Assembly: GCA_964482715.1 (NCBI GenBank)
Contig: CAYZYX010000015.1
Coordinates: 1 to 38,730 of the forward strand
Reading direction: 5' to 3'
DNA length: 38,730 bases
From: an uncultured Clostridia bacterium
GTDB taxonomy: Bacteria; Aerophobota; Aerophobia; Aerophobales; B3-G15
The position numbers and the translations under genes are program-made. Positions within the stretch are counted from its first letter, which is position 1; every line of letters begins with the position of its first letter. The notes under the pieces are model-generated. The model was not told where the DNA came from and searched no databases. It saw nothing but the letters and a program-made list of their open reading frames with translations. Of this stretch, positions 8,165-25,714 are shown one piece after another.

Positions 8165-9283
8165 TTAACGGGCAGCCCTTGCAACTCCACCTTTTCTGGC
8201 ACGCTCTATCTCTCTTTCCACTTCAGCCAGAGTAACCATACTGGTATCACCAGGAGTTGTTCCTGCCAGTGCTCCATGTGCCGCAGCATACTCAATAGCA
8301 AGCTGAGGCTCTTTTCCGGTCAGCATAGCGTAAATAAATCCTGAGGCAAAACTATCACCCATACCCACACGGTCATATATCTCTAAGTCTTTTCGGGGAG
8401 TTGCCTGATAAAATTCACCGTTCATGTAAAGGATACCTCCCCAATCATTTATGAGCGCTGTTTTAGCATTTCGGAGGGAAGTCAAAACTGCTTTAAAATT
8501 GGGGTATCTCTTTACCGCTTCTTTGGCCATTAACTTAAAACCCTGGGTTTTTTCAATATCCATTTTTTTACTTATATCAACACCCTTTACTTCAAGTCCA
8601 AGTGCTGCCTGGAAATCTTCTTCGTTACCCATCATCACATCAACGTAGGGGGCAATTTTTTTATTTACCTCCTGCGCTTTTTCTTTTCCACCTATTGCCT
8701 TCCACAGGGATGCCCGGTAGTTAAGATCGTAAGAGATGATTGTTCCTGTCTCCTTTGCTATTTGCATGGCCTCGATAATGACATCAGGTGTTGTCCCTGA
8801 TAGCGCTGCAAAAATTCCTCCTGTATGAAACCACTGAGCTCCTTCCTCTTTAAATATCTTCTTCCAGTTAACGTCCCCTTTTTTTAATTTGGAGGCAGCA
8901 CTGTGACCTCGATCATATTCGGTTTTAGCACTTCTTATACCATAGCCTTTTTCTGTCCAGTTTAATCCTGTTCTAACCTCCCTTCCTACACCGTCAAAGG
9001 GAAACCAGACTACATGAGATAAATCGACTCCGCCCTGCATCATAAGATCCTCGCATAGATGTCCCACTTCACAATCAGGGAGAGCTGTTACAATTGCTGT
9101 ATTAAGGCCGAAGACCTTCCTCAGGGCTCTTGCTACGTTATACTCACCTCCACCTTCCGATACAGTAAAATACCTTGCCGTTCTCACTCTTCCATCACCT
9201 GGATTTAACCTTATCATTATTTCACCCAGAGCAACAAGGGCGTATTTACACTCTTCCTTTGGTTTAACCATAAGCTGATTCAT
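8165..9283 (-). CDS. kdgK: 2-keto-3-deoxygluconate kinase (PfkB family)
   Basis: GEIMIRL, GGGEYNVA, YDLNYRASLW, GNEED, DRVGMGDSF; adjacent to eda. Confidence 0.88.
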   Translation of the reverse strand: MNQLMVKPKEECKYALVALGEIMIRLNPGDGRVRTARYFTVSEGGGEYNVARALRKVFGLNTAIVTALPDCEVGHLCEDLMMQGGVDLSHVVWFPFDGVGREVRTGLNWTEKGYGIRSAKTEYDRGHSAASKLKKGDVNWKKIFKEEGAQWFHTGGIFAALSGTTPDVIIEAMQIAKETGTIISYDLNYRASLWKAIGGKEKAQEVNKKIAPYVDVMMGNEEDFQAALGLEVKGVDISKKMDIEKTQGFKLMAKEAVKRYPNFKAVLTSLRNAKTALINDWGGILYMNGEFYQATPRKDLEIYDRVGMGDSFASGFIYAMLTGKEPQLAIEYAAAHGALAGTTPGDTSMVTLAEVEREIERARKGGVARAAR

Positions 9284-9338
9284 TTTTTACCTCTCTCTGG
9301 ATTTTATTCATTATTCAGTTGAATTGATGATAAAATTG

Positions 9339-9368
9339 CAGAGAGAGCCTCGTAGTTGAGGCCCCCTG
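9339..9368 (-). terminator. Stem-loop between eda and kdgK (terminator or processing site)
   Basis: Minus strand CAGGGGGCCTC-AACTAC-GAGGCTCTCTCTG, with a weak T-rich tail. Confidence 0.4.
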
Positions 9369-9377
9369 GGAAAATTT

Positions 9378-10034
9378 TTAAACCTCTTCTCGTCCCTTCT
9401 TCACTTCTTCAAGAAGTCTTTTCGCCTTTTCAGTTATAATCTGAAAATTACCCTCTTTGATCGCTTTTTTATCTACAAGAGCTGCCCCTACAGAAATGAC
9501 CGAGGCTCCAGCCCGGATAAATTCAGCGGCATTTTCAATTTTGACTCCCCCCGTAGGGTTTAAAAGAATGTGAGGGAGAGGTGCCTTAATGGCCTTAATG
9601 TAAGAAGGCCCTCCCAGATTTCCACAGGGGAAAACCTTAACTATGTCTGCTCCAGCTTGCCAGGCGGCGAGTATTTCTGTAGGGGTCATTGCTCCAGGAA
9701 TAACTATCTTGCTGTAGCGCTTACAAAGCTTGATCAAATCAAAGTTAAGACAGGGTCCTACCACAAACTCGGCTCCGGAAAGAATGGAGAGTCTTGCAGT
9801 TTCTGCATCAAGAACTGTACCTGCCCCTAAGAGAACCTCGTTTCCGGATTTCTTAGCCACTTCTTCCATAACGTTCAAAGCTCCCGGGACAGTCATGGTT
9901 ATCTCTATAACCTTTATATTTCCTTCTCTTAAAGCATCAACTACCTTCAAAGCTTCCTCGGACGAACTTGCTCTGACCACAGGAATTACACCCTGTTCCA
10001 GTAAGAACTTCAAATTTGAAGATTTATCTCGCAT
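9378..10034 (-). CDS. eda: KDPG/KHG aldolase
   Basis: PVVR, EITMT, GAGTV, PGAMTPTE, VKVFP (Schiff-base Lys), PTGGV. Confidence 0.93.
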   Translation of the reverse strand: MRDKSSNLKFLLEQGVIPVVRASSSEEALKVVDALREGNIKVIEITMTVPGALNVMEEVAKKSGNEVLLGAGTVLDAETARLSILSGAEFVVGPCLNFDLIKLCKRYSKIVIPGAMTPTEILAAWQAGADIVKVFPCGNLGGPSYIKAIKAPLPHILLNPTGGVKIENAAEFIRAGASVISVGAALVDKKAIKEGNFQIITEKAKRLLEEVKKGREEV

Positions 10035-10049
10035 TTTTTTATCCTCCTT

Positions 10050-10826
10050 TTAGAGATTTATATTTCTAAGTTCACTTACAATTTTATTGCATGCCTGATA
10101 GTATATACCCACATCAACAGAAAAAGAGATGTACCTAACACCGGCTTTGATCCACCTGGATGCTTCCTCCACACTTTCCACAAAAGTTCCCACCACCACC
10201 TCTTTTCTCTTTGCTATTTCAACTGCTTTTTCCATTTTGTCTATCACCGTGGGATGGTTAACCTGGCCGGGAACTCCACAAGATTGAGATAGATCATAGG
10301 GACCAAGAAAAATAACATCTAAACCAGGAACTTCTAAAATTTTTTCAAGATTGTTAATTCCCTCTATTCCTTCAATATGGATAATGGTCATAACCTCCTT
10401 GTTAGACATTTCAAAGTACCGATACTGATTAAAAGAGGAGTAACCAGCAGCTCGTACGAAGCGACAAACTCCACGTTCACCTTGAGGGGAAAATCTTGCT
10501 GCCTCAACTGCTTTTTTAGCATCTTCAGGGTTTACAATATGGGGAATTTCAACTCCTTGTGCCCCTATGTCAAGTACCCTCAAGATGGTGGAGGGACTAT
10601 TTTCCCACACTCTAATTATAGGAGTGATTTCTACCAGTTCTGCGGCACGCACATGATTCTGGGTACTTTCGATAGATAAAGGTCCGTGTTCAAGGTCAAT
10701 TATCACAAAGTCAAATCCGGCATATCCAGCAATTTCCACCGCTGCAGGGTCGGTGAACTTCATAAAAGGACCAATCCCAATCTTACCTTCCTTTAATAAT
10801 CTTTTTAATCTGTTCTTTTTTATCAT
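10050..10826 (-). CDS. HpcH/HpaI-family class II aldolase
   Basis: GFDFVIIDLEHG, RVLDIGAQG, PQGERG, IFLGPYDLS. Start placed at ATG 10826 (ATGA overlap with the upstream stop) rather than 10889. Confidence 0.9.
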   Translation of the reverse strand: MIKKNRLKRLLKEGKIGIGPFMKFTDPAAVEIAGYAGFDFVIIDLEHGPLSIESTQNHVRAAELVEITPIIRVWENSPSTILRVLDIGAQGVEIPHIVNPEDAKKAVEAARFSPQGERGVCRFVRAAGYSSFNQYRYFEMSNKEVMTIIHIEGIEGINNLEKILEVPGLDVIFLGPYDLSQSCGVPGQVNHPTVIDKMEKAVEIAKRKEVVVGTFVESVEEASRWIKAGVRYISFSVDVGIYYQACNKIVSELRNINL

Positions 10827-12793
10827 ATATCCCTTCCTACTTTTGCTCCTTCCTGAATTGCATGATATAAATTTCTTGGTTCGGCGCAATCTCCTATACA
10901 GTAAATTTCCCCTCTGTATCCTCTGGTTTTAAGTTCCTCTACGAGCTCATCTCGGGGTCTAAAGCCAGTTGCCATTACCAGAAGATCAAAAGAATATACT
11001 TCCTCCTTTCCCTCTTTTATTTTCTGAAAGACGGCCTTTTTATTTTCAACCTCCACAATTTTTCTTTCTGCCAGGATCTCCACGTTTAACATTTTCAGGT
11101 TATATAAAAGATAGAATCTGTTGGTAGAATGCTCATCTGTTAAAATACTATCCAAATCAAGGACTTCAAAGACTTTTACTTTTTTCCCCAGGGAAGAAAG
11201 ATACCAGGCCACCTCACAGCCCACAAGTCCTGCACCCAGAATAATAACTTTTTCTCCCATCTCTATTTCATCGTGCTTTTTTAGAACTTCTGATGCCGTG
11301 TAAAAAACACCTTTTTTTAACCCTGGAATTTCAGGAATTATATGTCTTGCTCCTGTAGCCATAACGATAGCATCGGGATTCTCCTGCCTTAACGTGAGAA
11401 CATCTACCGGTTTTCCAGGTCTTACCTCAACTCCACTTTTTTCTATTTTTCTAAGATAGTAGGCAAGCAATCTCCTAACATCTTTTTTAAATGGAGGAAT
11501 TGACGAAATAACAAGATTACCTCCAAGCTTGTCCTCTTTCTCGTAAAGAATAACTCGATGTCCCCTTCTGTTCAAGGTTAGCGCTGCTTCCAGACCAGCC
11601 GGTCCACCTCCCACCACCACTATTTTCTTTAAACGTTTTGCACTGTTAATTTGATATTTTCTCTCTCTACCAAGGGAGGGATTTACTGTACAACGCACTT
11701 CCTGTCCCGAAAATAGCCTTTTATGACATCGGTTGCACCTGATACAGGGTAGAATCTCTTCTATTTCCCCTTTTTCCACTTTTTCGGCCCATCTGGGGTC
11801 AGCGATAAGAGCTCTTCCCAGAACTACAAGATCAACCTTCTTTTGATTTAGAATCTCTTCAGCCAATTGAGGATCGTTAATTCCCCCACCTGCCATAACC
11901 GGAATGGAAACCTCAGCCTTTATGCTTCGGGCAAGCTCAACTACCTCTCCTGGAGGTGCATAAAGAGGTGAAACATCAAGATATCTCCAGCCTCCAAGTT
12001 CATAGGTTGTTGAGGCAACATGTAGATAATCAACACCAACTTTTTGCATATAAATGGCAATTTTTTTAGCCAGGTTTATATCAATTCCATTTTCTAAATG
12101 TTCGTAAGCACTGAATTTGAAACCAGCAACAAAATTTTGTCCACACTCCTTTTTTATTCCTCTTACTATTTCAGCCGGAAACCTCATTCTGCCTTCAAAA
12201 TCACCTCCATATTTGTCCTCTCTTCTATTGGTATGAGGAGAGATAAATTGACCTATAAGATAGGTGTGAGCTCCGTGAACCTCCACTCCATCAAATCCTG
12301 CGATTTTTGCTCTTTTTGCCGCCTGGATGAATTTTTCTATTAAATCTTCTATCTCTTCTATACTTAGCTGCCTGGGAGTTTCCTTATAAAGGGGACTTGA
12401 TACAGCTGAGGGAGCTACTGGTTTTAGTCCGGTTATAGATTTTTCCGCTCTTCCTCCATGATGAGCGATCTGGAGGAAAATTCTGGTGCCGTATTCTTTC
12501 ACACTCTCAGCAAGATAATTCAAACCAAAAACCTGTCTACCTGAAAAAACCCCTGGTGAATCCATCCTCTGATCATCAACAACCGATGTAAACTGGGTAA
12601 TAATAAGACCCACCCCGCCTTTTGCTCTTTCTTCATAATAATTTACAACTCTCTCGGTTAGAGAACCATCAGGATTAATCATTCCTACATCCATGGGAGC
12701 AAGAACCACCCTGTTTTTTATGCTTAAATGTCCAATTTTTACGGGAGAAAACAATGCAGAGAAATCAGGAGATAATCTTCGACAAATTATCAT
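10823..12793 (-). CDS. NADH:flavin oxidoreductase, OYE-like FMN/4Fe-4S/FAD enzyme (2,4-dienoyl-CoA reductase/BaiCD/BaiH-like)
   Basis: KNRVVLAPM, GFDGVEVHGAHTYL, TNRREDKYGG, CIRCNRC...C cluster, GGGPAG and GAGLVG dinucleotide motifs. Confidence 0.92.
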   Translation of the reverse strand: MIICRRLSPDFSALFSPVKIGHLSIKNRVVLAPMDVGMINPDGSLTERVVNYYEERAKGGVGLIITQFTSVVDDQRMDSPGVFSGRQVFGLNYLAESVKEYGTRIFLQIAHHGGRAEKSITGLKPVAPSAVSSPLYKETPRQLSIEEIEDLIEKFIQAAKRAKIAGFDGVEVHGAHTYLIGQFISPHTNRREDKYGGDFEGRMRFPAEIVRGIKKECGQNFVAGFKFSAYEHLENGIDINLAKKIAIYMQKVGVDYLHVASTTYELGGWRYLDVSPLYAPPGEVVELARSIKAEVSIPVMAGGGINDPQLAEEILNQKKVDLVVLGRALIADPRWAEKVEKGEIEEILPCIRCNRCHKRLFSGQEVRCTVNPSLGRERKYQINSAKRLKKIVVVGGGPAGLEAALTLNRRGHRVILYEKEDKLGGNLVISSIPPFKKDVRRLLAYYLRKIEKSGVEVRPGKPVDVLTLRQENPDAIVMATGARHIIPEIPGLKKGVFYTASEVLKKHDEIEMGEKVIILGAGLVGCEVAWYLSSLGKKVKVFEVLDLDSILTDEHSTNRFYLLYNLKMLNVEILAERKIVEVENKKAVFQKIKEGKEEVYSFDLLVMATGFRPRDELVEELKTRGYRGEIYCIGDCAEPRNLYHAIQEGAKVGRDI

Positions 12794-13941
12794 ATAAGGC
12801 TCCTTATTCTATGAAAAGCCTCTTTTATGTTTTCCACAGACGTCGCAAAGGAAAATCGCAAATATCCCTCTCCTCCCGGACCAAAGGAGGACCCGGGAAC
12901 TGTTACGACCCTCGCTTTTTCAAGTAATTTAAGGGCAAAATCTTCAGACTTCTCCCCGGTTTTTTTAATGTTCACAAAGGCATAAAAAGTTCCGCGGGGT
13001 GGAAAACAGGAAAAAAGGGGAACTTTATCTATCTCTTCCAGGAGAGCGTCCCTTCTTTTCCTGTATTCTTTAACCATTTTTCTTACTTCTTGATCACCCT
13101 GTTGCAAAGCAACAAGAGCTGCCTCTTGAGAGATGGAACTGGCACAGGCTGCAATATGTTCCTGAAGTTTAACCATCTCTCTTATGACTTCTTCAGGACC
13201 CAGTATATATCCCACTCTCCATCCAGTCATAGCATAAGTCTTAGAAAAGGTATTGATGACAAAAGTCTTTGATTTCAATCCGGGGAAAGAACATATGCTT
13301 TTATATTCTCCCTCATAAATTATTTTTTCATACGCTTCATCGGAAATAATGAAAATATTCCTCTCTTTGCAAAGATTGGCAATTTTTTCCAGTTCATGTA
13401 GTTTGTAAACACTTCCGGTAGGATTATTGGGAGAATTTATAATTACAGCCCGGGTTTTAGTACTAAGATAAGGCAACATTCTTTCCATCTTCATCACCCA
13501 TCCTTCTTCTTCTACAACAGGAACAAAAACAGGTTTTCCTCCGGCAAGAATCACATGAGCCTGGTAATTCGGCCAGCATGGATCAGGAATAAGTACTTCA
13601 TCACCAGGATTAACTATGCTCAGCATGCAAAGAGCAAGAGCTTCCATAGCTCCCACTGTAATGAGTATCTCACTTTCAGGATCATAAGATACCCCTTGTT
13701 CCCTCTCGTATTTTTCAGCTACCGCTTCTCTTAAGGAAAAAAATCCGGCGTTAGGTGTATAATGTGTTCTTCCCTTTTTTGCTGCCTGAAACCCGGCTTC
13801 AACAATGAAAGAAGGAGTAGCAAAATCGGGTTCACCGATACAAAGGTGAATGGCATCTTTATATCTTAAGGCAAGATCAAACATTCTTCTTATTCCCGAA
13901 TGAGGTAACTTTAAAACTCTTTCTGCACACACCGGATTCAT
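12790..13941 (-). CDS. PLP-dependent aminotransferase class I/II
   Basis: IGEPDF, NSPNNPTG, SDEAY, FSKTYAMTGWRVG, LRFSFA. Confidence 0.95.
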   Translation of the reverse strand: MNPVCAERVLKLPHSGIRRMFDLALRYKDAIHLCIGEPDFATPSFIVEAGFQAAKKGRTHYTPNAGFFSLREAVAEKYEREQGVSYDPESEILITVGAMEALALCMLSIVNPGDEVLIPDPCWPNYQAHVILAGGKPVFVPVVEEEGWVMKMERMLPYLSTKTRAVIINSPNNPTGSVYKLHELEKIANLCKERNIFIISDEAYEKIIYEGEYKSICSFPGLKSKTFVINTFSKTYAMTGWRVGYILGPEEVIREMVKLQEHIAACASSISQEAALVALQQGDQEVRKMVKEYRKRRDALLEEIDKVPLFSCFPPRGTFYAFVNIKKTGEKSEDFALKLLEKARVVTVPGSSFGPGGEGYLRFSFATSVENIKEAFHRIRSLI

Positions 13942-13956: not shown

Positions 13957-14784
13957 TTATTTTACTGCACCAAAGGTTAACCCTCGCACAATGTATCGCT
14001 GAAGATAAACAACAAGCACAAAAGCGGGGATCAAAGCCAGTGTTGAAAGAGCACACATTAAGGGCCAATCAAATCTCATGGTTCCAGCCAGTGAGGCAAC
14101 CAGAACGGGAACAGTTCGAGCCTGCTCTGAAGTGAGAATAAAAGCAAATAAAAATTCATTCCACGATAAAAGAAAAACAAGCGCAGCTACAGCTACGATC
14201 ATGGGAAGAGCTACGGGGATTAAGATATAAAGTAAAATTTGCCCTCTGGTAGCACCATCTACAACAGCAGCTTCGGCCAGCTCGGAAGGAATTTCCTCAA
14301 AGTAACCCTTTAGTAGCCAGATAGCAAGGGGAAGATTGATGGTAAGATGGGCAACCATTACCGCAAGGATAGTATCTACCAGCCTGAAGCTACGTAGTAT
14401 GATATAAAGAGGAACAATTATTCCGAAAGCAGGAGCCATTCTCACGGAAAGTATCCAGAAACCTATATTCTGACTTGCTCTGGTTTTGAGGTTAGCCAGT
14501 GCATAACCTGCAGTAATTCCCAGAAGAAGAACCAGAAATACATTAGACAAAGATACTACTGCGCTGTTCAGGAAAGCCCTAAGCATACCTCCACCCAGTG
14601 CCTTCTTGTAAGCTTCAAAAGTTGGAGTCCATATGAAATCCGGGGGTATTTTTAGTGCCTGATACATGCTTTTAAAAGATGACTGAATAAGCCATAGCAG
14701 GGGAAAGAGAACAAAAACAAGATATATGGAAATAATAAGGTAGAGGGTAAACTTTTTTAATTTCTTATGGCTTTTAACCTGCAT
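13957..14784 (-). CDS. Carbohydrate ABC permease (MalG-like)
   Basis: EAAVVDGA loop, SWNEFLFA, C-terminal GLTFGAVK. Confidence 0.93.
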   Translation of the reverse strand: MQVKSHKKLKKFTLYLIISIYLVFVLFPLLWLIQSSFKSMYQALKIPPDFIWTPTFEAYKKALGGGMLRAFLNSAVVSLSNVFLVLLLGITAGYALANLKTRASQNIGFWILSVRMAPAFGIIVPLYIILRSFRLVDTILAVMVAHLTINLPLAIWLLKGYFEEIPSELAEAAVVDGATRGQILLYILIPVALPMIVAVAALVFLLSWNEFLFAFILTSEQARTVPVLVASLAGTMRFDWPLMCALSTLALIPAFVLVVYLQRYIVRGLTFGAVK

Positions 14785-15638
14785 TACATGATCCTTCTTA
14801 TAAGTAAAATACTTACTCCAATAGTCATAAACAGCATAACAATAGCAAGAGCTGCTGCCTGACCCAGATTAAAGTAAAGAAATCCAATTTTCCATCCTAA
14901 AAGAGGAAAAGTTTGAGTAGCGGTACCCGGGCCTCCACTGGTCATCACAAAGATAGTGTCAAACACATTAAAGGCATCAATAAACCTTATGATTAAAGCA
15001 ATAATAATAGCTGGTTTTATTAAAGGGAGAGTGATATAACTAAAAATCTGTGGACTTGAAGCACCATCTATTCTGGCTGCTTCATAGAGGTCTGGGGAAA
15101 CAGCCTGTAGGCCAGCAAGAAGAATAAGAAACATTAATGAAGTCTTACTCCAGATATCAGCTACAATAACCGAGCCCAGGGCTAATGAAGGGTCAGCAAG
15201 CAGGCTCTTCATAAAACCTATTTTTGGAAGCAAATAAGCTCCGATTATACCAACCTCTCTGTTGAGAACAAATTTCCAGGCAAAACCTGCTACTACGGGA
15301 GGAATTACAAGAGGCAGGGCAATAATAGTACGGATAACGTTTCTCCCCTTCAGTTCTTCATTCAATATTAAAGCTAATCCAAGGCCCAGGACAAAAGTTA
15401 ATACCGTAGATGAAAGAGTGTAAATCAAGGAGACCTTGAGTGATTGCAAAAAATCTGAGGAGGTCAAAATCAGATAGAAGTTCTCAATACCTGTAAAGGG
15501 CATACCTCTTTTAAATAGGACCCACTGGTGCAGGCTTATATAAAAGAGAAAAAAAGTTGGGAAAGCGACTATTGATAAAAGGATAACAAGAGAAGGTATT
15601 AAAAATTTATATTGCCACCTCACCCTGGTTTCCTCCAC
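14784..15638 (-). CDS. Carbohydrate ABC permease (MalF-like)
   Basis: LAGLQ, EAARIDGAS, TSGGPG motifs; GTG start. Confidence 0.93.
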   Translation of the reverse strand: MEETRVRWQYKFLIPSLVILLSIVAFPTFFLFYISLHQWVLFKRGMPFTGIENFYLILTSSDFLQSLKVSLIYTLSSTVLTFVLGLGLALILNEELKGRNVIRTIIALPLVIPPVVAGFAWKFVLNREVGIIGAYLLPKIGFMKSLLADPSLALGSVIVADIWSKTSLMFLILLAGLQAVSPDLYEAARIDGASSPQIFSYITLPLIKPAIIIALIIRFIDAFNVFDTIFVMTSGGPGTATQTFPLLGWKIGFLYFNLGQAAALAIVMLFMTIGVSILLIRRIM

Positions 15639-15643
15639 TGTTT

Positions 15644-15673
15644 CCGGGAGGAAGAGAAGTATCTTCCTCCCGG
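15644..15673 (-). other. Intercistronic stem-loop after the binding-protein gene
   Basis: Perfect 12-bp inverted repeat CCGGGAGGAAGA / TCTTCCTCCCGG with a 6-nt loop. Confidence 0.8.
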
Positions 15674-15682
15674 TTTAAATTT

Positions 15683-18360: not shown

Positions 18361-19091
18361 ATAAAAGTGGGAGGAACAGATAGCTTCCTGAGTGCCAAGA
18401 TGGCTTGATTGATGTGTTTTTGGCCCTCTCTTAAAGTGAAAAGCTTATGACCTGGTAAGAGAACGTCTACAGAAAGACCTGATAGTCGTCCAATGTAGCT
18501 GCGATAATCGGCAAGATTTGAACCCCAGTAATTTAAAAGTCCTATCTCTCCATTGTAAAAAACCACGTCACCGGTAAAAAGAATATTTTTCCCCTCATGT
18601 TCTAAAAAATAGCAGGTTGATCCCGGACTGTGCCCCGGAACATGAATAGCCCTTAGTAAAAATCTTCCAACCCTAATAATATCATCGTGTGATATTCTTA
18701 CATCGGCTGAGCAATGAGGAAAGACATAATCCTGAGAGTATATACCACTTTCTTTGGCTATAATTAAGCCAAGCTCTTCATCTGTTCCCTCTTCAAGAAG
18801 ATTAACCTCGTTACTGTGGACAAAGATCTTGCACCCAAATTTTTCCTTCATTTTCCTGCACCCACCAGCATGATCTGCATGAGTGTGAGTTAGGATAATC
18901 TTGGTGATTTTATCAGGACTAAATCCTTCTTTCTCTATATTTGTAAAGATTTGCTCTATCTCAAGCCCCACACCCGCATCGATTAAGGCAAGCTCCTCTT
19001 TTCCATCCAGAAGATAAACATAACAGTCATTAGGATGTGAAAGACCTAACATTCCAGCTCCTACAAGGTAGATACCGGAAAATATCTTCAT
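18357..19091 (-). CDS. Metallo-beta-lactamase-fold hydrolase
   Basis: THTHADH, PGHSPG, FTGD, LPGH. Confidence 0.92.
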   Translation of the reverse strand: MKIFSGIYLVGAGMLGLSHPNDCYVYLLDGKEELALIDAGVGLEIEQIFTNIEKEGFSPDKITKIILTHTHADHAGGCRKMKEKFGCKIFVHSNEVNLLEEGTDEELGLIIAKESGIYSQDYVFPHCSADVRISHDDIIRVGRFLLRAIHVPGHSPGSTCYFLEHEGKNILFTGDVVFYNGEIGLLNYWGSNLADYRSYIGRLSGLSVDVLLPGHKLFTLREGQKHINQAILALRKLSVPPTFI

Positions 19092-20083
19092 AATGATATC
19101 TCCACTCCTTTTTCTGCAGACTCTATGGCTGCCAGAGTTATTTTAACTGACTCTCTAACATCCTCAAGGGGAACTTTTCTCTGTGGCTGCCTTTTTAAAA
19201 CACACTGCATAAAATAATCCAGTATCCGATAAACTGTCCCCCATGCTCTGGTCTCAACCGTTGGCCAGAAAAAAATGTCAGGATGTTCACCCCTTTTCTC
19301 GGTCCAGACAGACATACCCACACAGGGAGAGTCAATAAAGGCAACCCCCCTGGATCCTATAACTTCCACTGTGGAGTTTAACTGGGTAGGAGCACCATCT
19401 GGAAGTAACCAGGATGTTTCAACTACGGCAATTCCACCACGGGAAAATGTCAGTACAGCCCAGTAAGTATCAGCAATATGCGGATTCAAAATATTTATCT
19501 TTCTGGCATAAACTTTAGTTACTTCATCTTCCATGTACCAGCGAGCAAGGTCAATTTCATGGATACCAGTTTCAAGCATAGGTGTGTGTTTTGCATGCTG
19601 TTCAAAAAGACCCCTCCATACGTTTCTTTTACTGTAAATAGAGACGATTTTTCCCAGTTCTCCTCTTTTTATTCTTTCTTTAAGCATCTCATAGCGAATA
19701 TCAAAGCGAAGGGTATGGGCCACCATAAAGATAACCTTTTTTTCTCTTACCTTCCGGATTATTTTTTCAATTTCTTCCATATTAAGTGCCAGAGGTTTTT
19801 CTGCCAGAACATCTTTTTCTGCCTCAAGGGCTGCTAAAATTGGCTCAGAATGTCGTTCCGGTTCAGTAGCCACTATTATGACCTGAATTTCTGGATCTTG
19901 GATTATTTTTTGAAAATCAAGATAGTATTTTTTTATTTTATACCTTTGAACTATTTGTTTACATCTTTCTTCACTACGGGAGCAAACAGCTACCATCTCA
20001 ACATAAGGCAAGGTAGAAAGAGCAGAAATTTCAACTTCTCCCCACCTTCCTAAGCCGATAATTCCAACTTTTACTTTATTCAT
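19088..20083 (-). CDS. Gfo/Idh/MocA-family oxidoreductase
   Basis: GIIGLGRWG, AEKPLA, ETGIHEID. Confidence 0.92.
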   Translation of the reverse strand: MNKVKVGIIGLGRWGEVEISALSTLPYVEMVAVCSRSEERCKQIVQRYKIKKYYLDFQKIIQDPEIQVIIVATEPERHSEPILAALEAEKDVLAEKPLALNMEEIEKIIRKVREKKVIFMVAHTLRFDIRYEMLKERIKRGELGKIVSIYSKRNVWRGLFEQHAKHTPMLETGIHEIDLARWYMEDEVTKVYARKINILNPHIADTYWAVLTFSRGGIAVVETSWLLPDGAPTQLNSTVEVIGSRGVAFIDSPCVGMSVWTEKRGEHPDIFFWPTVETRAWGTVYRILDYFMQCVLKRQPQRKVPLEDVRESVKITLAAIESAEKGVEISL

Positions 20084-20105
20084 TTCTTGTTTTTCATAAA
20101 ATTTT

Positions 20106-20807
20106 TTATGGAAGTAGCCTTTCTGGCCTTATTCTGCCCCAGACCTGGTATACCTGAAAGGCTTCAGCGTATTTTACTCCACACTGTCTTCCTCTAAAGG
20201 AAGCTATATTTTTCATAAATTCAACGTAATCAATATTGTCATGCTCCTTCAACCATTTATACTGGGATTGATGACAGAGAAGCATTTTTTCCTTGATTTC
20301 AATAACATCGGAAATGTCAACGTAATCGGTTGGAGAAAATCTCACTCCAGCAAGTGTATCCATAAAGATTATTGGTGGTATAGAGGGAATAAACTCATGT
20401 TGGGTTACATAGTTGGGAGTTGTGGCAGCAAAGCTTGCAGAAATTACAATACGTGAAGTCATAGAGTGGTCAACCATGTAATCGTCTGGATGATGAGTTA
20501 TAATGAGATCAGGGCGAGCAAGACGAATTAAATCAGCGACCTTCTTTCTGGTATCGGGAGTATCATATATCTCAAAATCACCGAAAAAGCCTCCTTTTAT
20601 CTTTGCTCCAATTATCTTAGCAGATTTTTTTGCCTCTTCTTCTCTAATCCTGGCAAGTTCAGGTGGTTTTATCTCATAGTGCCCCTTATCTCCATTACAA
20701 AGGTAAGCCATAAAGATCTCATCTCCCCGTTTTTTAAACTTGACAAGAGTCCCCGCACATAAAAGTTCTATATCATCAGGATGTGCACCTACAGCTAATA
20801 TGCGCAT
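20106..20807 (-). CDS. PIG-L/LmbE-family N-deacetylase
   Basis: GAHPDDIE, R.EEA, DYMVDH, HQSQ, YAEAF. Confidence 0.92.
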   Translation of the reverse strand: MRILAVGAHPDDIELLCAGTLVKFKKRGDEIFMAYLCNGDKGHYEIKPPELARIREEEAKKSAKIIGAKIKGGFFGDFEIYDTPDTRKKVADLIRLARPDLIITHHPDDYMVDHSMTSRIVISASFAATTPNYVTQHEFIPSIPPIIFMDTLAGVRFSPTDYVDISDVIEIKEKMLLCHQSQYKWLKEHDNIDYVEFMKNIASFRGRQCGVKYAEAFQVYQVWGRIRPERLLP

Positions 20808-20844
20808 TTTTTAACCTCTAAGACTTAAAGTTATTTCAGAAGTA

Positions 20845-21606
20845 TTACTCGGCTGTCAAACCACCATCTATCACCAGTATCGAACCGGTCATAAAAGCAG
20901 AATCATCTGAGGCAAGGTAAAGGGCGAGACGGGCAACATCTTCTGGTAAGCCTCTTCTTCGTAAGGGTTGCCAGTTAGTTTTGGCCTCTGCGGGGTCTTT
21001 TTCTGGGGCATAGTGAGCTACAACTGTATCTCCTTGAGCTGTATCTATCATTCCCGGACAGATACAGTTGACCCGGATATTATCGGAAGCAAAGTCAAGA
21101 GCCATATTTCGGGTCAAATTTATCACACCCCCTTTGGAAGCATTATAAGCAGCAGCCTCCCTGGCTCCTACAAGACCAGCAACTGAAGCAATATTTATAA
21201 CCGAACCTCCGCCTTTTTTCTGCATTACGGGGATGATTTCACGGGATACAAGAAAAATTCCCTTTAAATTTGTATTTAAAACCTGATCCCAGATCTCTTC
21301 ACTAAGGGTGGTTACTTTTCCCGGTCTCCAGATTCCAGCATTGTTAACCAGTATATCAATCTTTCCACAAAAAGAAATAGCTTTCTGTGCCATATTCTTT
21401 ACCTCATCAACCTGAGAGACGTTGGTCTTTACAAATAAACACTTGCCCCCTTTTTCTTGAATTTCTCTTTGTGTTTTAGTTCCTTCTTCTTCATTTACAT
21501 CGGCAATAACCACTTTACAACCCTCACTGGCAAAAAGTCGAGAGATGGCTTTTCCTATCCCCATAGCACCACCTGTTACAACAGCTGATTTTCCTTGTAA
21601 TTTCAT
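20845..21606 (-). CDS. Short-chain dehydrogenase/reductase
   Basis: TGGAMGIG, NNAG, YNASK, DGG. Confidence 0.95.
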   Translation of the reverse strand: MKLQGKSAVVTGGAMGIGKAISRLFASEGCKVVIADVNEEEGTKTQREIQEKGGKCLFVKTNVSQVDEVKNMAQKAISFCGKIDILVNNAGIWRPGKVTTLSEEIWDQVLNTNLKGIFLVSREIIPVMQKKGGGSVINIASVAGLVGAREAAAYNASKGGVINLTRNMALDFASDNIRVNCICPGMIDTAQGDTVVAHYAPEKDPAEAKTNWQPLRRRGLPEDVARLALYLASDDSAFMTGSILVIDGGLTAE

Positions 21607-21625
21607 TCACTCCCTCCCTTATTGT

Positions 21626-22447
21626 CTATTTTAAAGCCCCCATGGTTAGGCCCTTTACCAGGTGTTTTTGAGCAAGAATAGTAAATACCATCACTGGAAT
21701 TAGGGCTAGCACTCCGCCTGCTGTCATATATCCCCATCCAATACCTGTCTCTTTAATATAGCTTGTGATACCTACAGGCAAGGTTACTGCTTTACTTCCA
21801 GTGAGAATAAGGGCGAAAAGAAATTCATTCCAGGAAAAAATAAAAGTAAGGATACCTGTTGCTACAAGACCAGGAGCTACAAGAGGCATGGCTATTTTCC
21901 AGAAGGTTCCAAAAGTAGAACACCCATCAACAAGGGCACTTTCCTCGATTTCTTTAGGGACTTCTTGAAAAAAACCTTTCATCATCCACACCGCGAAAGG
22001 TAAATTGAAGGTAAGATAGGTTATAATTAAACTTAATGGATTGTCCAAGAGACGGAGATTTTTCATGATAATATAAAGAGGTATAATAGCAGCTACAGGT
22101 GGCATCATTCTTATTGAGAGGATCCAAAATGAAATGTTTTCTGCTCCTTTAAATTTAAAACGGGCTAAAGCGTAACCAGCCAGAGAACCCAGAAAAAGAA
22201 CTATTCCGGTATTTGAGGAAGCAATTATTAGACTGTTTAATAGGTAGTTCTCGATGGGGGTTTTCTGGATGGCCTCCCTATAATTTTCCAAAGTAGGTAT
22301 AAAAATCCAGACAGGAGGAAAGCTGAGTGCCTCTGATTCTGTTTTGATAGAGGTGAAAAATAAAATAAAAGGTGGAAAAAGTATTACAATGAATATCAGA
22401 ACTGTTATTATTATAAAAATTGCGGTTTTGAGTGTTCTTATATTCAC
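21626..22447 (-). CDS. Carbohydrate ABC permease (MalG-like)
   Basis: EESALVDG, SWNEFLFA, KGLTMGALK. Confidence 0.93.
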   Translation of the reverse strand: MNIRTLKTAIFIIITVLIFIVILFPPFILFFTSIKTESEALSFPPVWIFIPTLENYREAIQKTPIENYLLNSLIIASSNTGIVLFLGSLAGYALARFKFKGAENISFWILSIRMMPPVAAIIPLYIIMKNLRLLDNPLSLIITYLTFNLPFAVWMMKGFFQEVPKEIEESALVDGCSTFGTFWKIAMPLVAPGLVATGILTFIFSWNEFLFALILTGSKAVTLPVGITSYIKETGIGWGYMTAGGVLALIPVMVFTILAQKHLVKGLTMGALK

Positions 22448-22451
22448 CTCT

Positions 22452-23375
22452 TTATCCTTTAGCTATATTTTTTGTTTGCAATACTCGAATCAAACTTATT
22501 GAAATTACCGTTACTATAACTAAAACCAACCAAGATAAAGCTGAAGCGTATCCCATGTGGAAAAACTTAAATCCATATCGATAAGTATAGTAATTAAGGA
22601 CTTCTGTACTCATTCCAGGTCCACCTTGGGTGAGGACAAAAATTAGATCAAAGGTCTTAAAAGAGTCCATTATTCTGATGAGAAGTGCTACCATCATTAT
22701 TGGAGTTAAAAGTGGTAAGGTTATATAGCGAAAGATTTGCCACGAACTTGCCCCATCAACAATAGCTGCTTCGAAAGAATCCTGAGGTAAAGCTTGCAAT
22801 CCAGCTAAAAGTATTAAAGCCATAAAAGGAGTCCATTCCCAAATATCAGCCATCATTACCGAGGGAAGAGCAGTTTCTGGTTTACCTACCCAGTTAATAG
22901 GTGGAAAACCAAATAAAGTGAGAAAGTAATTAAGCATACCCAAATCTGGATTGTACATGAGTCTCCATATAATTCCTACTACTACAGGTGTCATGGTGGT
23001 GGGAACAATCAAAGTGGTTCTTAAAAATCCTATAATTTTGGTTGTAATTCTGTTTAAAATAAGTGCTACTGCAAGACCCAACGCAAACTGGAGCGGGACT
23101 GTTCCCAAGAGGTAGAGAAAGGTTACTTTAAGTGTGGAGCGGAAATAGGGATCGTATAGAAAGATAGTTTTATAATTCTCCAGACCAATCCATGTCCACT
23201 CCTTACCTCTAATTACATTCCATTCGTGGAAGCTTAAGGAAAGGGAAAAAATAAGGGGAAATATAACTATGCTTATGAGTATAATAATTACAGGAGCAAG
23301 AAAGAAAAGCCATGTATATCTACGTCTTATAACGGATAAAAAAACTATTATTTTTCTGTTTTTATTTTTAGTCAT
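22452..23375 (-). CDS. Carbohydrate ABC permease (MalF-like)
   Basis: DIWEWTPF, EAAIVDGAS, TQGGPG. Confidence 0.93.
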   Translation of the reverse strand: MTKNKNRKIIVFLSVIRRRYTWLFFLAPVIIILISIVIFPLIFSLSLSFHEWNVIRGKEWTWIGLENYKTIFLYDPYFRSTLKVTFLYLLGTVPLQFALGLAVALILNRITTKIIGFLRTTLIVPTTMTPVVVGIIWRLMYNPDLGMLNYFLTLFGFPPINWVGKPETALPSVMMADIWEWTPFMALILLAGLQALPQDSFEAAIVDGASSWQIFRYITLPLLTPIMMVALLIRIMDSFKTFDLIFVLTQGGPGMSTEVLNYYTYRYGFKFFHMGYASALSWLVLVIVTVISISLIRVLQTKNIAKG

Positions 23376-23385
23376 TTCTTCTCTG

Positions 23386-23419
23386 AATAGGGGATAAGGT
23401 TTGGTCCTTACCCCCTATT
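23386..23419 (-). other. Intercistronic stem-loop after the binding-protein gene
   Basis: 14-bp stem (minus strand AATAGGGGGTAAGG / CCTTATCCCCTATT, one G-U pair), 6-nt loop. Confidence 0.75.
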
Positions 23420-23429
23420 TTCTTCGATT

Positions 23430-24791
23430 TTACAGATATCCCCACTTCCTCAAGATAAACTCAAACTTCTTATTAGCCTCATCGAGAGCCTTTTTAGCAC
23501 TTTTAGCTCCAGTCATAGCTTCAGATAGAGCAACCTCCAGAGCATCAGCAAGTTCGGAATAAGCAGGAATCCTTGGGCGTCCTTTAGCTATGGGTAAGGA
23601 TTTTAATAGCGTGGGATACCCAACATATTTAGCCTGCAGTTCTGGATCTGCCAGGGAAGAGAAACGATCGCCAGGTTGTGCATAAGCTAATCTTGGCTCC
23701 ATTTCCGGTGAAGTAGCCCAAACTATAAATTCCCATGCCGCCTCTTTGAATTTGGAATCAACTGGGATTTCCAGGCTCCAACCACCAAAAGTAGGAGTTC
23801 GTTTTATACTTCCATCGGGTTGTAGTTTTCCAGGAATCATAGCAAAATCAAATTTGCCAACAATTTTAGATTTTGAAGGGTCTGAACAGAGAGGAGCAGC
23901 ATTGTGCCATTGTAAGTTCATAGCTGCTCTTCCATCGGCAAAGGTACGGGCACTCTCATCCCAGTCATAGGTCAACACTCCCCTGGGGGCAAAAGGAATA
24001 AGAGACTTAAAATACTCCAATGCCGCTACAGCAGCAGGACTGTTTATTGTAGGACGATAATTTTCGTCATACCACTCGCCACCGAATGACCAGATCATAT
24101 TATCATATGTGCACTGAAGCTGGACACCTCTTCTTCCCATGAAAGTTATTCCATTTACGCCGGGCTCTTTCAAATTGAGCTTTTCAGCAGTTTCCTTAAG
24201 CTCTTCCCAGGTTTGAGGGACGTTTATCCCGTATTTTTCAAATATGTCAGTACGATAATGAAGCCCAAATGCAGCATTAATAAAGGGTAATCCATGTATC
24301 CGGTCTTCCCACATACCCTGTTCTTCTAATACTGATGGAATAAAATCATCCAGAGCCAAAGTTTCACGATCCGTCCTCAAAATGAATTTTTCCAAGGGAA
24401 TAGTCCATCCTTCACCTGCATATTGTCCGACCCATACACAGTCAACGTGGACTACATCATAAGCTCCTGTCCCCTGAGTAAGAGCTACCATCTGTTTTTC
24501 CTGTAGAGTAGGATAAGCTAGAATATCAAAGACTACCTTGATTCCGGTCAACTTCTCGAATTCACCAACTAAAGCTTTTAACGCATCAGAGCGAGGTTCT
24601 GCAACCATAGCAACATGGATGGTCTTCCCAGCCCAGGGCTTTTGAGTATAGGTACCAAACTTAAATCCTGGAGGGATGTTTACCTGTACTTCCTTATAAG
24701 CTGCAAGGGCAGGCAAACTAAACCAGCTAATGATAAGTACCATCAGCATCAAGGCTACCGGTACTGCCACTTTTTGTTTTTTGCTAAACAT
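23430..24791 (-). CDS. ABC transporter sugar-binding protein (SBP family 1)
   Basis: Signal peptide ending ALA-A; FEKLTGIKV, YRTDIF, PQTWEEL, GGW, EAAWEFI. Confidence 0.92.
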   Translation of the reverse strand: MFSKKQKVAVPVALMLMVLIISWFSLPALAAYKEVQVNIPPGFKFGTYTQKPWAGKTIHVAMVAEPRSDALKALVGEFEKLTGIKVVFDILAYPTLQEKQMVALTQGTGAYDVVHVDCVWVGQYAGEGWTIPLEKFILRTDRETLALDDFIPSVLEEQGMWEDRIHGLPFINAAFGLHYRTDIFEKYGINVPQTWEELKETAEKLNLKEPGVNGITFMGRRGVQLQCTYDNMIWSFGGEWYDENYRPTINSPAAVAALEYFKSLIPFAPRGVLTYDWDESARTFADGRAAMNLQWHNAAPLCSDPSKSKIVGKFDFAMIPGKLQPDGSIKRTPTFGGWSLEIPVDSKFKEAAWEFIVWATSPEMEPRLAYAQPGDRFSSLADPELQAKYVGYPTLLKSLPIAKGRPRIPAYSELADALEVALSEAMTGAKSAKKALDEANKKFEFILRKWGYL

Positions 24792-24815
24792 TTATTTTAC
24801 CCCCTTAAATTTTTT

Positions 24816-25664
24816 TCAGTTTTTGTATGTTCTCATCACCTCCTGTTTACTGTTTTTAACCCCTTGAAGGTACCCGAGTCTACGGGAGATTTTTTTGGTA
24901 GTTTCCATCAGAAGTTCTTTTAATTTTTCACATCTGGAAGAATTCATCCTAAATGCTGGACCTGAAATACTAATGGCGGCGATCACCTTGCCCTGATAAT
25001 CTCTCAAAGGAGCAGCAACACATCGTACATCTTTCTCATGTTCACCTCTATCTTCAGCAAATCCCTGTTTTCTTATTTTATTCAGTTCTTCTTCTAAAAG
25101 GCTTTTGTCAGTTATTGTTCTCTGTGTAAAACGTTTTAATCCCTTTTTCTCTACAATTTTTCTTCTTTCTCTCTCATCCAGGTGAGCCAAAAGAACTTTC
25201 CCCAAACCCGTACAGTGAGCTGGAGCCCTCCTACCAATCTGGGAGACCATGCGTATTGTTTGAAGAGGTTCTTCTTTATCCAGATATAGAACCTCTCCAT
25301 CATCAAGAATGGCAAGATGGACCGTTTCCTGACATTTGTTCATAAGTTCTCTCAGGTAGGGAGCAGCTTCTTTTACCAGATACATTTTCTGTAATTTCGC
25401 AAGTCCAAGTTCCAGGGCTTTGTTTCCCAGCTCATATTTTCGAGTCACTGGATCCTGCTCAACATAACCTCTGTATTTAAGAGTATCCAGTATTCGATGA
25501 ACGGTACTTGCCCCAATTTTAAGTCTACTGCTTAGTTCAGCGATACCAAGGGAGGAATCTTCTCTAGCAATTGTCTCCAGAATAGTCAAAGACTTATCAA
25601 GTACCTTGATAAGATATTTAGGTTCTGGGGTGTCTTTTTTTACCATCCCGTTTTTATTCTGCAT
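24816..25664 (-). CDS. IclR-family transcriptional regulator (true start may be ATG at 25646)
   Basis: N-terminal HTH (STVHRILDTL..RGYV), ETVHL, PAHCTGLGK, CVAAP, AISISGP. Confidence 0.95.
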   Translation of the reverse strand: MQNKNGMVKKDTPEPKYLIKVLDKSLTILETIAREDSSLGIAELSSRLKIGASTVHRILDTLKYRGYVEQDPVTRKYELGNKALELGLAKLQKMYLVKEAAPYLRELMNKCQETVHLAILDDGEVLYLDKEEPLQTIRMVSQIGRRAPAHCTGLGKVLLAHLDERERRKIVEKKGLKRFTQRTITDKSLLEEELNKIRKQGFAEDRGEHEKDVRCVAAPLRDYQGKVIAAISISGPAFRMNSSRCEKLKELLMETTKKISRRLGYLQGVKNSKQEVMRTYKN

Positions 25665-25714
25665 TATAGAACCTCATTCTGAAATAAGCATAAAAAAATA
25701 ATAAAAAAGGTCAA
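25657..25714 (-). promoter_or_regulatory. Putative promoter and IclR operator of the catabolic cluster
   Basis: TTGACC-16 bp-TATGCT (25714..25687), followed by the palindrome TTCT-N7-AGAA (25657-25671). Confidence 0.5.

Follow-up and report, generated by a model that had tools for sequence, protein, structure and literature searches.

The window analysed here is a stretch of 38,730 nucleotides from the genome of an uncultured bacterium (contig CAYZYX010000015.1 of assembly GCA_964482715.1), in which positions 8165 to 25664 hold a row of 17 open reading frames (ORFs), all on the minus strand. Read from its regulator gene, the row encodes an IclR-family protein, a first ATP-binding cassette system (ABC-1) with the binding protein SBP1, a short-chain dehydrogenase (SDR), a PIG-L de-N-acetylase, a dehydrogenase of the Gfo/Idh/MocA family (Gfo), a metallo-beta-lactamase-fold hydrolase (MBL), an M20 deacylase, a second ABC system (ABC-2) with the binding protein SBP2, a class I aminotransferase, a flavoenzyme related to old yellow enzyme (OYE), an HpcH/HpaI aldolase (HpcH), an aldolase for 2-keto-3-deoxy-6-phosphogluconate (KDPG) or 2-keto-4-hydroxyglutarate (KHG), Eda, and a PfkB kinase resembling those for 2-keto-3-deoxygluconate (KDG) (Table 1). 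The Pfam scan gave matches for all families of the row. An earlier note on this DNA had counted 16 genes, although its own list sums to 17; the common orientation was right, every family that it named was backed by Pfam, and the four ATGA start/stop overlaps that it reported (19088-91, 18357-60, 12790-93 and 10823-26) were present on the minus strand. Intergenic distances inside the row range from -4 to 94 bp, and the widest gap (153 bp) lies upstream of iclR, outside this internal range. Because of the overlap at 10823-26, the start of the HpcH gene was placed at 10826 and not at the TTG at 10889 of the ORF listing.

Table 1. Genes and features of the row and of its surroundings in the window
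Feature	Position	Strand	Evidence and remarks
MalK-type ABC ATPase	921..2084	+	Pfam ABC_tran and OB_MalK
PfkB kinase, KDG-kinase-like	8165..9283	-	Pfam PfkB, 88.8 against a cut-off of 25.8
KDPG/KHG aldolase (Eda)	9378..10034	-	NCBIfam TIGR01182 eda, 187.1 against 156.05
HpcH/HpaI class II pyruvate aldolase	10050..10826	-	Pfam, 7.3e-36
OYE/FadH-type flavoenzyme (FMN, 4Fe-4S, FAD)	10823..12793	-	Pfam Oxidored_FMN and Pyr_redox_2; proposed ene-reductase
Class I (AspC-like) aminotransferase	12790..13941	-	Pfam Aminotran_1_2, 9.6e-80
ABC-2 (SBP2 15683-17062; permeases 14784-15638 and 13957-14784)	13957..17062	-	Pfam
Hairpin, perfect GC-rich palindrome with a 12-bp stem	15644..15673		In the 44-bp gap between SBP2 and the first permease
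M20 ArgE/DapE-type deacylase	17104..18360	-	NCBIfam TIGR01910 'ArgE/DapE family deacylase', 298.8 against 217.6
Metallo-beta-lactamase-fold hydrolase (MBL)	18357..19091	-	Pfam Lactamase_B, 2.1e-28; proposed lactonase
Gfo/Idh/MocA NAD(P) dehydrogenase	19088..20083	-	Pfam; proposed C1 oxidation of a sugar to its lactone
PIG-L (CE14-type) de-N-acetylase	20106..20807	-	Pfam PIG-L, 98 bits against 28.2
SDR dehydrogenase, travels with ABC-1	20845..21606	-	Pfam adh_short
ABC-1 (SBP1 23430-24791; permeases 22452-23375 and 21626-22447)	21626..24791	-	Pfam SBP_bac_1 and BPD_transp_1
IclR-family regulator	24816..25664	-	Pfam IclR_C, 2.1e-58, and HTH_IclR
Ribulose-phosphate 3-epimerase (RPE)	25818..26486	-	NCBIfam rpe, 255 bits against 212.6; 153 bp upstream of iclR
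HAD-family phosphatase-like gene, between kinase and RPE	26490..27251	-	Pfam HAD_2/Hydrolase
FGGY kinase, xylulokinase type	27281..28825	-	Pfam FGGY_N/C; outside the span of the earlier note

The 17-gene row is a juxtaposition of conserved modules which end in a common KDG/KDPG exit. The first module consists of iclR, ABC-1 and the SDR gene, the second of the PIG-L gene, and the third of the genes from Gfo to OYE, followed by HpcH, Eda and PfkB. The host genome (1.57 Mb, 54 contigs, 94.7% complete) belongs to a phylum with only 31 species representatives, all in one order, and in its relatives the blocks were found apart. In genome G011, contig C52 carries Eda, Gfo, MBL, SBP2, two permeases, aminotransferase, OYE and M20 in this order (71, 77, 78, 87, 83, 87, 71, 70 and 57% identity), contig C24 carries SBP1, two permeases and SDR (87, 78, 80 and 74%), and the PIG-L gene (68%) lies on contig C69. 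The SDR gene on C24 is followed by a DeoC aldolase, an FGGY kinase, an IclR regulator (68%) adjoining an HpcH aldolase (63%), two zinc-dependent alcohol dehydrogenases and a creatininase-family gene. The blocks are separated in the same way in genome G028. Orthologues of SBP1 (about 79-86%) are carried by 8 further genomes of the phylum, on contigs that lack SBP2, while SBP2 orthologues (about 84-85%) were found in 4 of 15 genomes of a related family (f5) and in none of 7 genomes of the window's own family. Since ABC-1 with SDR, PIG-L and the ABC-2 module sit on separate contigs with different partners in the relatives, the row is not one dedicated pathway, and the single catabolic route drawn for all its genes in the earlier note did not hold. 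That the row is composite and that its third module is conserved can be held with high confidence.

The arrangement itself is genuine. The array was found again, with proteins 99-100% identical, on metagenome contigs of three different record prefixes, two of which (L025, L076) span iclR to the aminotransferase and one (L026) SBP2 to PfkB. The array is therefore not an assembly chimera. This recurrence could also be counted for one IclR-controlled operon, with all 17 genes devoted to one complex N-substituted glycoside: its related forms would enter through ABC-1 and ABC-2, and PIG-L and M20 would each remove a different amide-linked group. The gaps of at most 94 bp throughout and the single regulator at the head would suit such an operon, and promoter-like matches were not above the shuffled level (43 against 40.3 +/- 6.9 in the promoter scan of the region, an uninformative result in itself). 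However, the three blocks have their own regulators and partners on different contigs of the relatives, no glycoside hydrolase was found in the row by Pfam, and among 79 metagenome loci the fused form was seen solely in the window's own lineage (L025, L026 and L076). Nor does spacing delimit a unit: the upstream RPE, HAD and FGGY genes are equally tight, with gaps of 3 and 29 bp, so that position 25714, where the earlier note had ended its cluster, is no clear boundary. Co-orientation is not special to the cluster either, because the minus strand holds every gene-sized ORF of the window across 2081-34820. An operon for one glycoside is thus quite improbable.

PIG-L is a stray module in the row, since it belongs in relatives to a separate ABC operon. 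The protein is a member of the PIG-L/CE14 family with the AHPDD zinc motif and is the sole PIG-L family match in the genome; by NCBIfam it is not a bacillithiol enzyme (BshB1 117 against a cut-off of 182.5, BshB2 also below its cut-off). Its orthologues (67-70%) were found in 6 relatives, at other sites, and not in any of the 7 genomes from the family of the window itself. In genome G019 the gene comes after a SIS-domain gene, an unrelated CUT1 ABC system and an uncharacterised 456-aa gene.

ABC-2, with SBP2, is the anchor of the conserved third module. In a search with SBP2, 8000 candidates were scored and 220 of them proved to be homologues at E<=1e-30; the best 120 of these, as listed, are 56-100% identical, and the protein is 54-87% identical across non-identical metagenome contigs. 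The names of the matches listed include Spirochaetota, Chloroflexi, Armatimonadota, Deinococcales and Alphaproteobacteria, and also the archaeal Nitrososphaerota, Thermoproteota and Methanomethylicaceae; a partial homologue from a related lineage bears the NCBI label Candidatus Aerophobetes. No match was obtained by tblastn against 72,556 plasmids at E<=1e-60, and the ESM Atlas contained only generic 'solute-binding protein' clusters for SBP2.

For a survey of gene neighbourhoods, an alignment of 30 SBP2 homologues was used as query in a metagenome scan, which returned 79 loci. Their ORFs of at least 100 aa were clustered by all-against-all blastp, antisense shadow ORFs were removed, and each cluster was named from Pfam scans of one or two representatives. 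Loci were merged at SBP2 identities of at least 95% into 55 groups, and the 34 groups with at least 6 kb of flank were kept. Six roles recur around SBP2 in these groups: a dehydrogenase (SDR or Gfo) in 28, an amidohydrolase (M20 or creatininase family) likewise in 28, a lactonase-type hydrolase (MBL or PTE) in 24, an enzyme of nitrogen removal or a flavin enzyme (class I or V aminotransferase, RidA, OYE or PNPOx) in 22, a kinase (FGGY or PfkB) in 16 and a pyruvate aldolase (Eda, HpcH or DHDPS) in 13. At least four of the six roles are present in 25 of the 34 groups, and at most one in four groups (L042, L091, L095 and L098). Hence the recurrence that the earlier note had called for was found: Gfo, MBL, M20, ABC-2, aminotransferase and OYE, with aldolase and kinase, recur around SBP2 orthologues in many unrelated lineages. 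Together with HpcH, Eda and PfkB, module 3 belongs to a catabolic gene set that is widespread, uncharacterised and centred on a single, highly conserved binding protein.

The replacements of families are coordinated, one role being taken by unrelated families from lineage to lineage. Of the 34 groups, 8 combine OYE with M20 and none combines it with the creatininase family, while FGGY occurs with the creatininase family in 13 groups and with M20 in 2. RidA was present in 5 of the 34 groups. PNPOx was found in 7 loci, with M20 in 6 of them and OYE in 0. Three forms could be distinguished. Form B (low GC), which includes the window, has MBL, OYE, M20, SDR or Gfo, aminotransferase, Eda or HpcH, PfkB and IclR. 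Form A (high GC) has SDR, creatininase family, PTE, FGGY and RidA/Eda; its PTE best matches 'phospho-furanose lactonase', below cut-off, and its FGGY kinase is XylB-like. Form C, from loci where the SBP2 homologues bear the NCBI label Nitrososphaerota or Thermoproteota, has Gfo, M20, MBL and a PNPOx/PPOX-class flavoprotein, which replaces OYE there. The class V aminotransferase type of the SBP2 loci best matches BhcA, PhnW and pyridoxamine-pyruvate transaminase. One high-GC SBP2 locus (L096, 17006-17998) encodes a KDPGal-type aldolase (260.8 against a cut-off of 207) that has a RidA (Ribonuc_L-PSP) domain fused to its N-terminus, a fusion which links imine hydrolysis directly with aldol cleavage.

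On a 561-kb metagenome contig (L082), MBL, nitroreductase, OYE and an SBP2 homologue lie beside a branched-chain-type ABC system. This homologue is 84% identical over residues 203-459 only, and its gene may be truncated or rearranged.

In the window, NCBIfam assigned the enzymes of module 3 in general terms only. The top solved relative of Gfo is 3EZY (3.4e-33), the gene is 77% identical and syntenic on C52 of G011, and no NCBIfam equivalog was reached (IolG 163.7 against 355). MBL carries the metal motif HTHADH at residue 69, and its homologues (39-50%) lie beside SBP2 orthologues in 13 of the 34 dereplicated loci. For M20 the specific DapE, ArgE and YgeY equivalogs were all below the NCBIfam cut-off. 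A scan of the genome collection with M20 only gave one locus, in Acetoanaerobium pronyense (44%), where the IclR- and OYE-like proteins are just 26% identical, and this was rejected as a different cluster. The aminotransferase has the PLP (pyridoxal 5'-phosphate)-lysine motif SKTY, no NCBIfam equivalog above cut-off, and an ATGA overlap by which its gene is translationally coupled with OYE. The latter protein has the whole feature set of an OYE/FadH Fe-S ene-reductase, namely the FMN barrel, the HxxHxY motif, the 4Fe-4S cysteine motif (CxxCxxCx11C) and the FAD/NAD(P) domain. Its H-G-A-H-T-Y aligns with H-A-A-H-G-Y of YqjM, where FadH has G-S-E-G-Y and NCR has A-I-V-G-Y; we take these HxxHxY residues to be the substrate-binding and proton-donor motif of the ene-reductase type. 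The cysteine of the YqjM 'PMC' position is absent, and no equivalog was reached (BaiCD 475.5 against 825, bilirubin reductase 456.3 against 750, mycofactocin OYE also below cut-off). In all, the Eda and generic ArgE/DapE models passed their cut-offs, and no other enzyme of the row reached a specific NCBIfam equivalog.

The recurring role set of dehydrogenase, lactonase, amidohydrolase, transaminase or RidA, aldolase and flavoenzyme suggests an N-acylamino-aldonolactone route to KDG. A 3-deoxy acid is needed, because three unrelated pyruvate-aldolase families occur in one context and all require a 4-hydroxy-2-oxo acid. The 2-oxo group would come from a 2-amino group, since the aminotransferases of both types look like true transaminases and 2-imino acids are hydrolysed by RidA; the substrate of the transaminase would thus be an amino acid which is already 3-deoxy. 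M20 (ArgE/DapE) or the creatininase-family amidase would free this alpha-amino group from an N-acyl group. A composite locus with a core that turns an N-acyl amino sugar into a 2-keto-3-deoxy acid is therefore our leading reading, tentatively held and nearly as apt to be right as wrong. The earlier note had proposed a passage from an N-acylated sugar or sugar acid to KDG/KDPG, and this part fits the role set, while its frame of one pathway for the whole row fails. Its order (oxidise, open the lactone, deacylate, transaminate, cleave) gives no role to the Fe-S flavoenzyme and no 3-deoxy acid to Eda or HpcH.

We infer the following steps instead, whose specific order around an ene-reduction is doubtful. 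ABC-2 would import an N-acyl-2-amino-2-deoxy sugar, for example an N-acetylhexosamine, and Gfo would oxidise it at C1 to the aldonolactone. N-acetylglucosaminolactone readily eliminates to the 2-enonolactone; in the same manner the 3-OH of the lactone would be lost by beta-elimination, and ring opening by MBL would give a 2-acylamino-2,3-dideoxy-2-enoate. OYE would then reduce the activated C2=C3 bond and re-oxidise the NAD(P)H of the Gfo step, which would suit a fermenter. The acyl group would be taken off the N-acyl amino acid by M20, and the class I aminotransferase would convert the 2-amino-3-deoxy acid into KDG or an isomer. PfkB and Eda would finally produce pyruvate and glyceraldehyde-3-phosphate, or HpcH would act as an alternative without phosphorylation. 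In form A, a creatininase-family amidase, a PTE-family phospho-lactonase, an FGGY kinase and the RidA-aldolase fusion would take over: hydrolysis of the enamide would free an enamine, and RidA would turn it into the 2-keto acid. PPOX-class flavoproteins also reduce activated alkenes, including unsaturated lactones. In full, this would be a redox-neutral anaerobic route for N-acyl-2-amino sugars, giving KDG by beta-elimination, ene-reduction, M20 deacylation and transamination through a free 2-amino-2,3-dideoxy-aldonic acid, without a dehydratase or PLP lyase, and existing in at least three enzyme forms (Fe-S OYE; PPOX-class; creatininase/PTE/FGGY/RidA) with one binding protein spread between bacteria and archaea; the complete proposal with all its particulars is unlikely to be exact.

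Among the exit enzymes, Eda is a member of its family and the sole PF01081 match in the genome. HpcH reached no equivalog (HpaI 179.5 against 368.8, GarL 163.9 against 406.75). The best models of PfkB are KDG-kinase-like yet below cut-off, the top one being the kinase half of 'KHG/KDPG aldolase/sugar kinase fusion' (1.3e-87; 294.7 against 700) and another giving 160.6 against 440. As the earlier note had said, the usual KDG-feeding genes uxaC, uxuA, kduI, edd and nagA/nagB are absent from the window by Pfam scans. In the whole genome UxuA, UxaC and KduI were not found and no NagA was above cut-off, absences which are not proven at a completeness of 94.7%; the genome does hold one Glucosamine_iso-family gene and, on a contig other than that of the window, one ILVD_EDD-family gene. 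The single Eda and the missing UxuA, UxaC, KduI and NagA agree with the N-acyl amino sugar reading. In relatives of family f5, a D-2-hydroxyacid dehydrogenase gene stands right before Eda (L030, 3-2856; L128, 12491-13465). In L030 this pair precedes the SBP2 module and two additional Gfo paralogues are present; in L128 it precedes the ABC-1 module. The dehydrogenase may act on what the aldolase releases, reducing the aldehyde or the keto acid.

In the semi-phosphorylative Entner-Doudoroff and De Ley-Doudoroff pathways, an aldose is converted through lactone, aldonate and 2-keto-3-deoxy acid, on which a kinase and an aldolase act. The skeleton of dehydrogenase, lactonase, 2-keto-3-deoxy acid, PfkB and Eda is common to these routes and the row, whereas the aldonate dehydratase is lacking in the row. 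Since amidohydrolase, transaminase or RidA, and flavoenzyme stand in its place, the 3-deoxy-2-keto function would be made from the 2-acylamino group. The dga route of Salmonella uses a phosphotransferase system (PTS) of the mannose type. Neither a PTS nor a SelA-family domain was found among the 36 window proteins scanned. The D-glucosaminate pathway of Salmonella (dga, PMC9529869) and a haloarchaeal prediction (PMC12343721), which leads by CE14 to glucosamine, glucosaminate and KDPG with a dehydrogenase, IclR and a RutC/RidA-family protein, are alike with the proposed route in going from amino sugar to amino-aldonate to KDPG and then to an Eda-type aldolase. With the haloarchaeal set the row also shares CE14 (PIG-L family), dehydrogenase and IclR. 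As these two sources outline the routes, however, a SelA-like glucosaminate-6-phosphate ammonia-lyase is used and neither a flavoenzyme nor M20 is named.

The ong pathway of Pseudoalteromonas for oxidative chitin products (PMC9537276) runs from N-acetylglucosaminate (GlcNAc1A) through glucosaminate (GlcN1A) and KDG to KDPG with a deacetylase, a PLP deaminase, an essential RidA and KdgK. It is similar to the proposed route in the deacetylation of an N-acetyl amino-sugar acid, the deamination to KDG, KdgK and the KDPG aldolase, and RidA, essential there, recurs in one form of the SBP2 gene set. Its own components, as given in that account, are the D-aminoacylase-type deacetylase OngB, the fold-type III PLP deaminase OngC, the RidA protein OngD, an SSS transporter and a MurR/RpiR regulator, whose counterparts in the row are M20 (and PIG-L), a fold-type I aminotransferase, a CUT1 ABC system and IclR. 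RidA was not among the window proteins scanned. Conversely, Gfo, MBL and the Fe-S ene-reductase of the row have no dehydrogenase, lactonase or flavoenzyme to match in the ong set as described. Searches of an open-access literature library brought up only the ong and dga work and the one haloarchaeal prediction; nothing found there described these families together in one cluster, or routes for N-acetylhexosaminate, galactosaminate or mannosaminate. The outcome is probably the same as in the ong, dga and haloarchaeal systems, namely N-acyl amino sugar to KDG, though the protein families differ.

It could be asked whether the chemistry, too, is of the ong/dga type, in which case the 'aminotransferase' would be a PLP ammonia-lyase converting amino-aldonate to KDG, and the Fe-S flavoenzyme would be merely an NAD(P)H oxidoreductase for redox balance. 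Fewer steps would have to be assumed, RidA (in 5 groups, and fused with the aldolase in L096) handles enamine or imine products, and glucosaminate-type ammonia-lyases yielding KDG or KDPG are established according to PMC9537276 and PMC9529869. Yet the class I and V enzymes are transaminase-like, unlike the fold-type III OngC or the SelA-like DgaE, and OYE bears the His/His/Tyr substrate-binding motif. OYE is also tied to M20 and never to the creatininase form, and in the loci with archaeal labels its place is taken by an unrelated family of flavoproteins, which argues for a pathway-specific flavoenzyme step. We consider ammonia-lyase chemistry improbable, though slightly likelier than the other alternatives.

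A conjugate of sugar and amino acid (an Amadori/Heyns product, an opine-like compound or an N-aldonoyl amino acid) has a smaller chance of being the substrate. M20 would free the amino acid for the aminotransferase and the ene-reductase, and the sugar half would pass through Gfo and MBL to KDG. M20 enzymes of the ArgE/DapE type typically free an L-amino acid, and the window M20 passes this model; the aminotransferase is AspC-like, and fructosamines are taken up by some CUT1 systems. Hot sediments should favour the formation of such adducts, and in a sequencing-run search near-identical DNA was found mainly in runs labelled hydrothermal-vent or sediment metagenomes, with no RNA run among those listed. 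Against the conjugates, the window cluster has no SIS-type deglycase or fructosamine kinase by Pfam, the OYE motif is, as far as its residue roles are presumed here, of the ene-reductase and not the amine-dehydrogenase type, the sugar half would have no route from aldonate to 3-deoxy acid, and the RidA-aldolase fusion would be left unexplained.

Just as small is the chance that a nitrogen-free polyol, inositol or aldose is oxidised by Gfo or SDR and opened by MBL on the way to KDG, with M20, aminotransferase and OYE as unrelated neighbours. SBP2 homologues are labelled sorbitol/mannitol or glycerol-3-phosphate binding proteins by JGI, and the closest solved structure of SBP2 is the sorbitol binding protein 4RYA, at merely 6.6e-26. 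The top family and structure matches of Gfo are inositol dehydrogenases, and Thermotoga degrades inositol to KDG. The neighbourhood argues against the sorbitol/mannitol or glycerol-3-phosphate label, for in 28 of the 34 groups the SBP2 orthologue has an amidohydrolase as neighbour, drawn from two unrelated families that track the other replacements, while a UxuA/UxaA-type or IolE dehydratase, IolD and IolB were absent from the window and the Pfam-scanned loci. Vitamin B6 degradation is similar in SDR, MBL lactonase, transaminase and PNPOx, and was rejected because a CUT1 importer, a kinase and Eda are unfit for a vitamin. Degradation of N-acyl-homoserine lactones, whose lactonases belong to the MBL and PTE families, was rejected on the FGGY/PfkB kinases, the phospho-furanose-lactonase-like PTE and the sugar-type ABC system. 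Rhizopine or inosamine, N-acetylmuramic acid (MurNAc, with lactate as leaving group) and ascorbate-like enediol lactones are conceivable candidates that were set aside for lack of fit.

Several points weigh against the preferred N-acyl amino sugar reading itself. The nearest solved relatives of SBP2 bind polyols or disaccharides, and no module 3 enzyme reaches an equivalog cut-off beyond the generic Eda and ArgE/DapE models. In the scheme the beta-elimination has no assigned enzyme, and there is no role for a gene like URO-D (uroporphyrinogen decarboxylase/methyltransferase family) found directly after OYE in 5 of the 79 loci and 4 of the 34 groups (for example L039 17296-18474, L075 16652-17815, L074 13577-14740), with a class V aminotransferase gene usually coming after it and with no NCBIfam model matched. 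PIG-L and M20 look redundant here; the sugar could be deacetylated by PIG-L beforehand, and M20 would then lack an obvious N-acetyl substrate. Aldolases and kinases were present in only 13 and 16 of the 34 groups, many contigs being short; the family labels of the clusters rest on their one or two scanned representatives, and SDRs are common genes, some of which may be chance neighbours. Tight spacing and the single IclR gene would also fit co-regulation of 17 genes for one compound.

If the N-acyl amino sugar route is true, amino sugars from chitin, peptidoglycan and glycoproteins would be fermented in uncultured sediment, vent and hot-spring microbes without recourse to NagA/NagB or the known glucosaminate lyases. 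It is unusual for sugar metabolism to employ an Fe-S flavoenzyme of the enoate-reductase type. As a set, these genes also offer a compact and testable case of non-orthologous replacement: around one conserved binding protein, two or three unrelated families serve each of five roles. SBP2 is a well-defined anchor for pathway discovery even if the substrate guess is wrong.

Module 1, which includes iclR, ABC-1 and SDR with the xylulokinase, HAD and RPE genes upstream, looks like a polyol or pentitol-type uptake and oxidation unit of ordinary layout. An ABC system with a dehydrogenase is the textbook layout of polyol and pentitol operons, such as those for ribitol, xylitol, sorbitol and mannitol, and IclR, ABC-1, SDR, xylulokinase and RPE are arranged in common with them. 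The top solved relative of SBP1 is 5IAI (6e-58), a structure with ribitol bound according to PMC8468352; the SDR gene is adjacent, and XylB (396.3 bits against a cut-off of 380.25) and rpe above their cut-offs lie upstream. For this block, then, the statement of the earlier note that no known pathway was recognisable went too far. The FGGY kinase is probably a member of the module. Kinase and RPE lie beyond the 153-bp gap, and no NCBIfam model was above cut-off for the HAD gene. As a difference from the polyol operons, the SDR passes merely the generic subfamily 'glucose 1-dehydrogenase' (PRK07231, 262.8 against 215), which gives no assignment as polyol dehydrogenase, and the module is accompanied in relatives by the DeoC aldolase and a different FGGY kinase (33% identity). 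SDR orthologues (74-76%) directly follow the ABC-1 permeases in both G011 (C24) and G028 (C17). No NCBIfam equivalog was reached by IclR (BhcR 236.9 against 350, KdgR 215.3 against 275). A few kb upstream of the ABC-1 module on C24 of G011 (L124) there is a mannosylglycerate synthase gene (1969-3135), and this lineage, related to that of the window, may make mannosylglycerate as a compatible solute.

Both ABC systems have the features of CUT1 importers, each with one SBP_bac_1 binding protein and two BPD_transp_1 permeases, and no ATPase gene lies in the row. The MalK-type ATPase on the opposite strand, about 6 kb past the cluster, is the sole candidate within the window, and it may be shared by both systems as a common energiser because neither of them has its own. 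Elements which stabilise mRNA occur after binding-protein genes, and the hairpin after SBP2, the top terminator-like match of the region, is probably such a stabilising or attenuating element of differential expression that boosts the output of the binding protein.

At the far end of the window the GC content falls to 0.35-0.37 across 33000-38200, and three ORFs there (34895-36874, of 659 aa, 36890-37249 and 37618-38196) are without a Pfam match. On its other side, hypA and hypB for hydrogenase maturation and a solitary RnfC-like gene, with no further rnf genes in the window, were identified by Pfam at 2081-3147 and 6746-8062, where they flank the sugar genes. This is consistent with an anaerobic, hydrogen-evolving fermenter.

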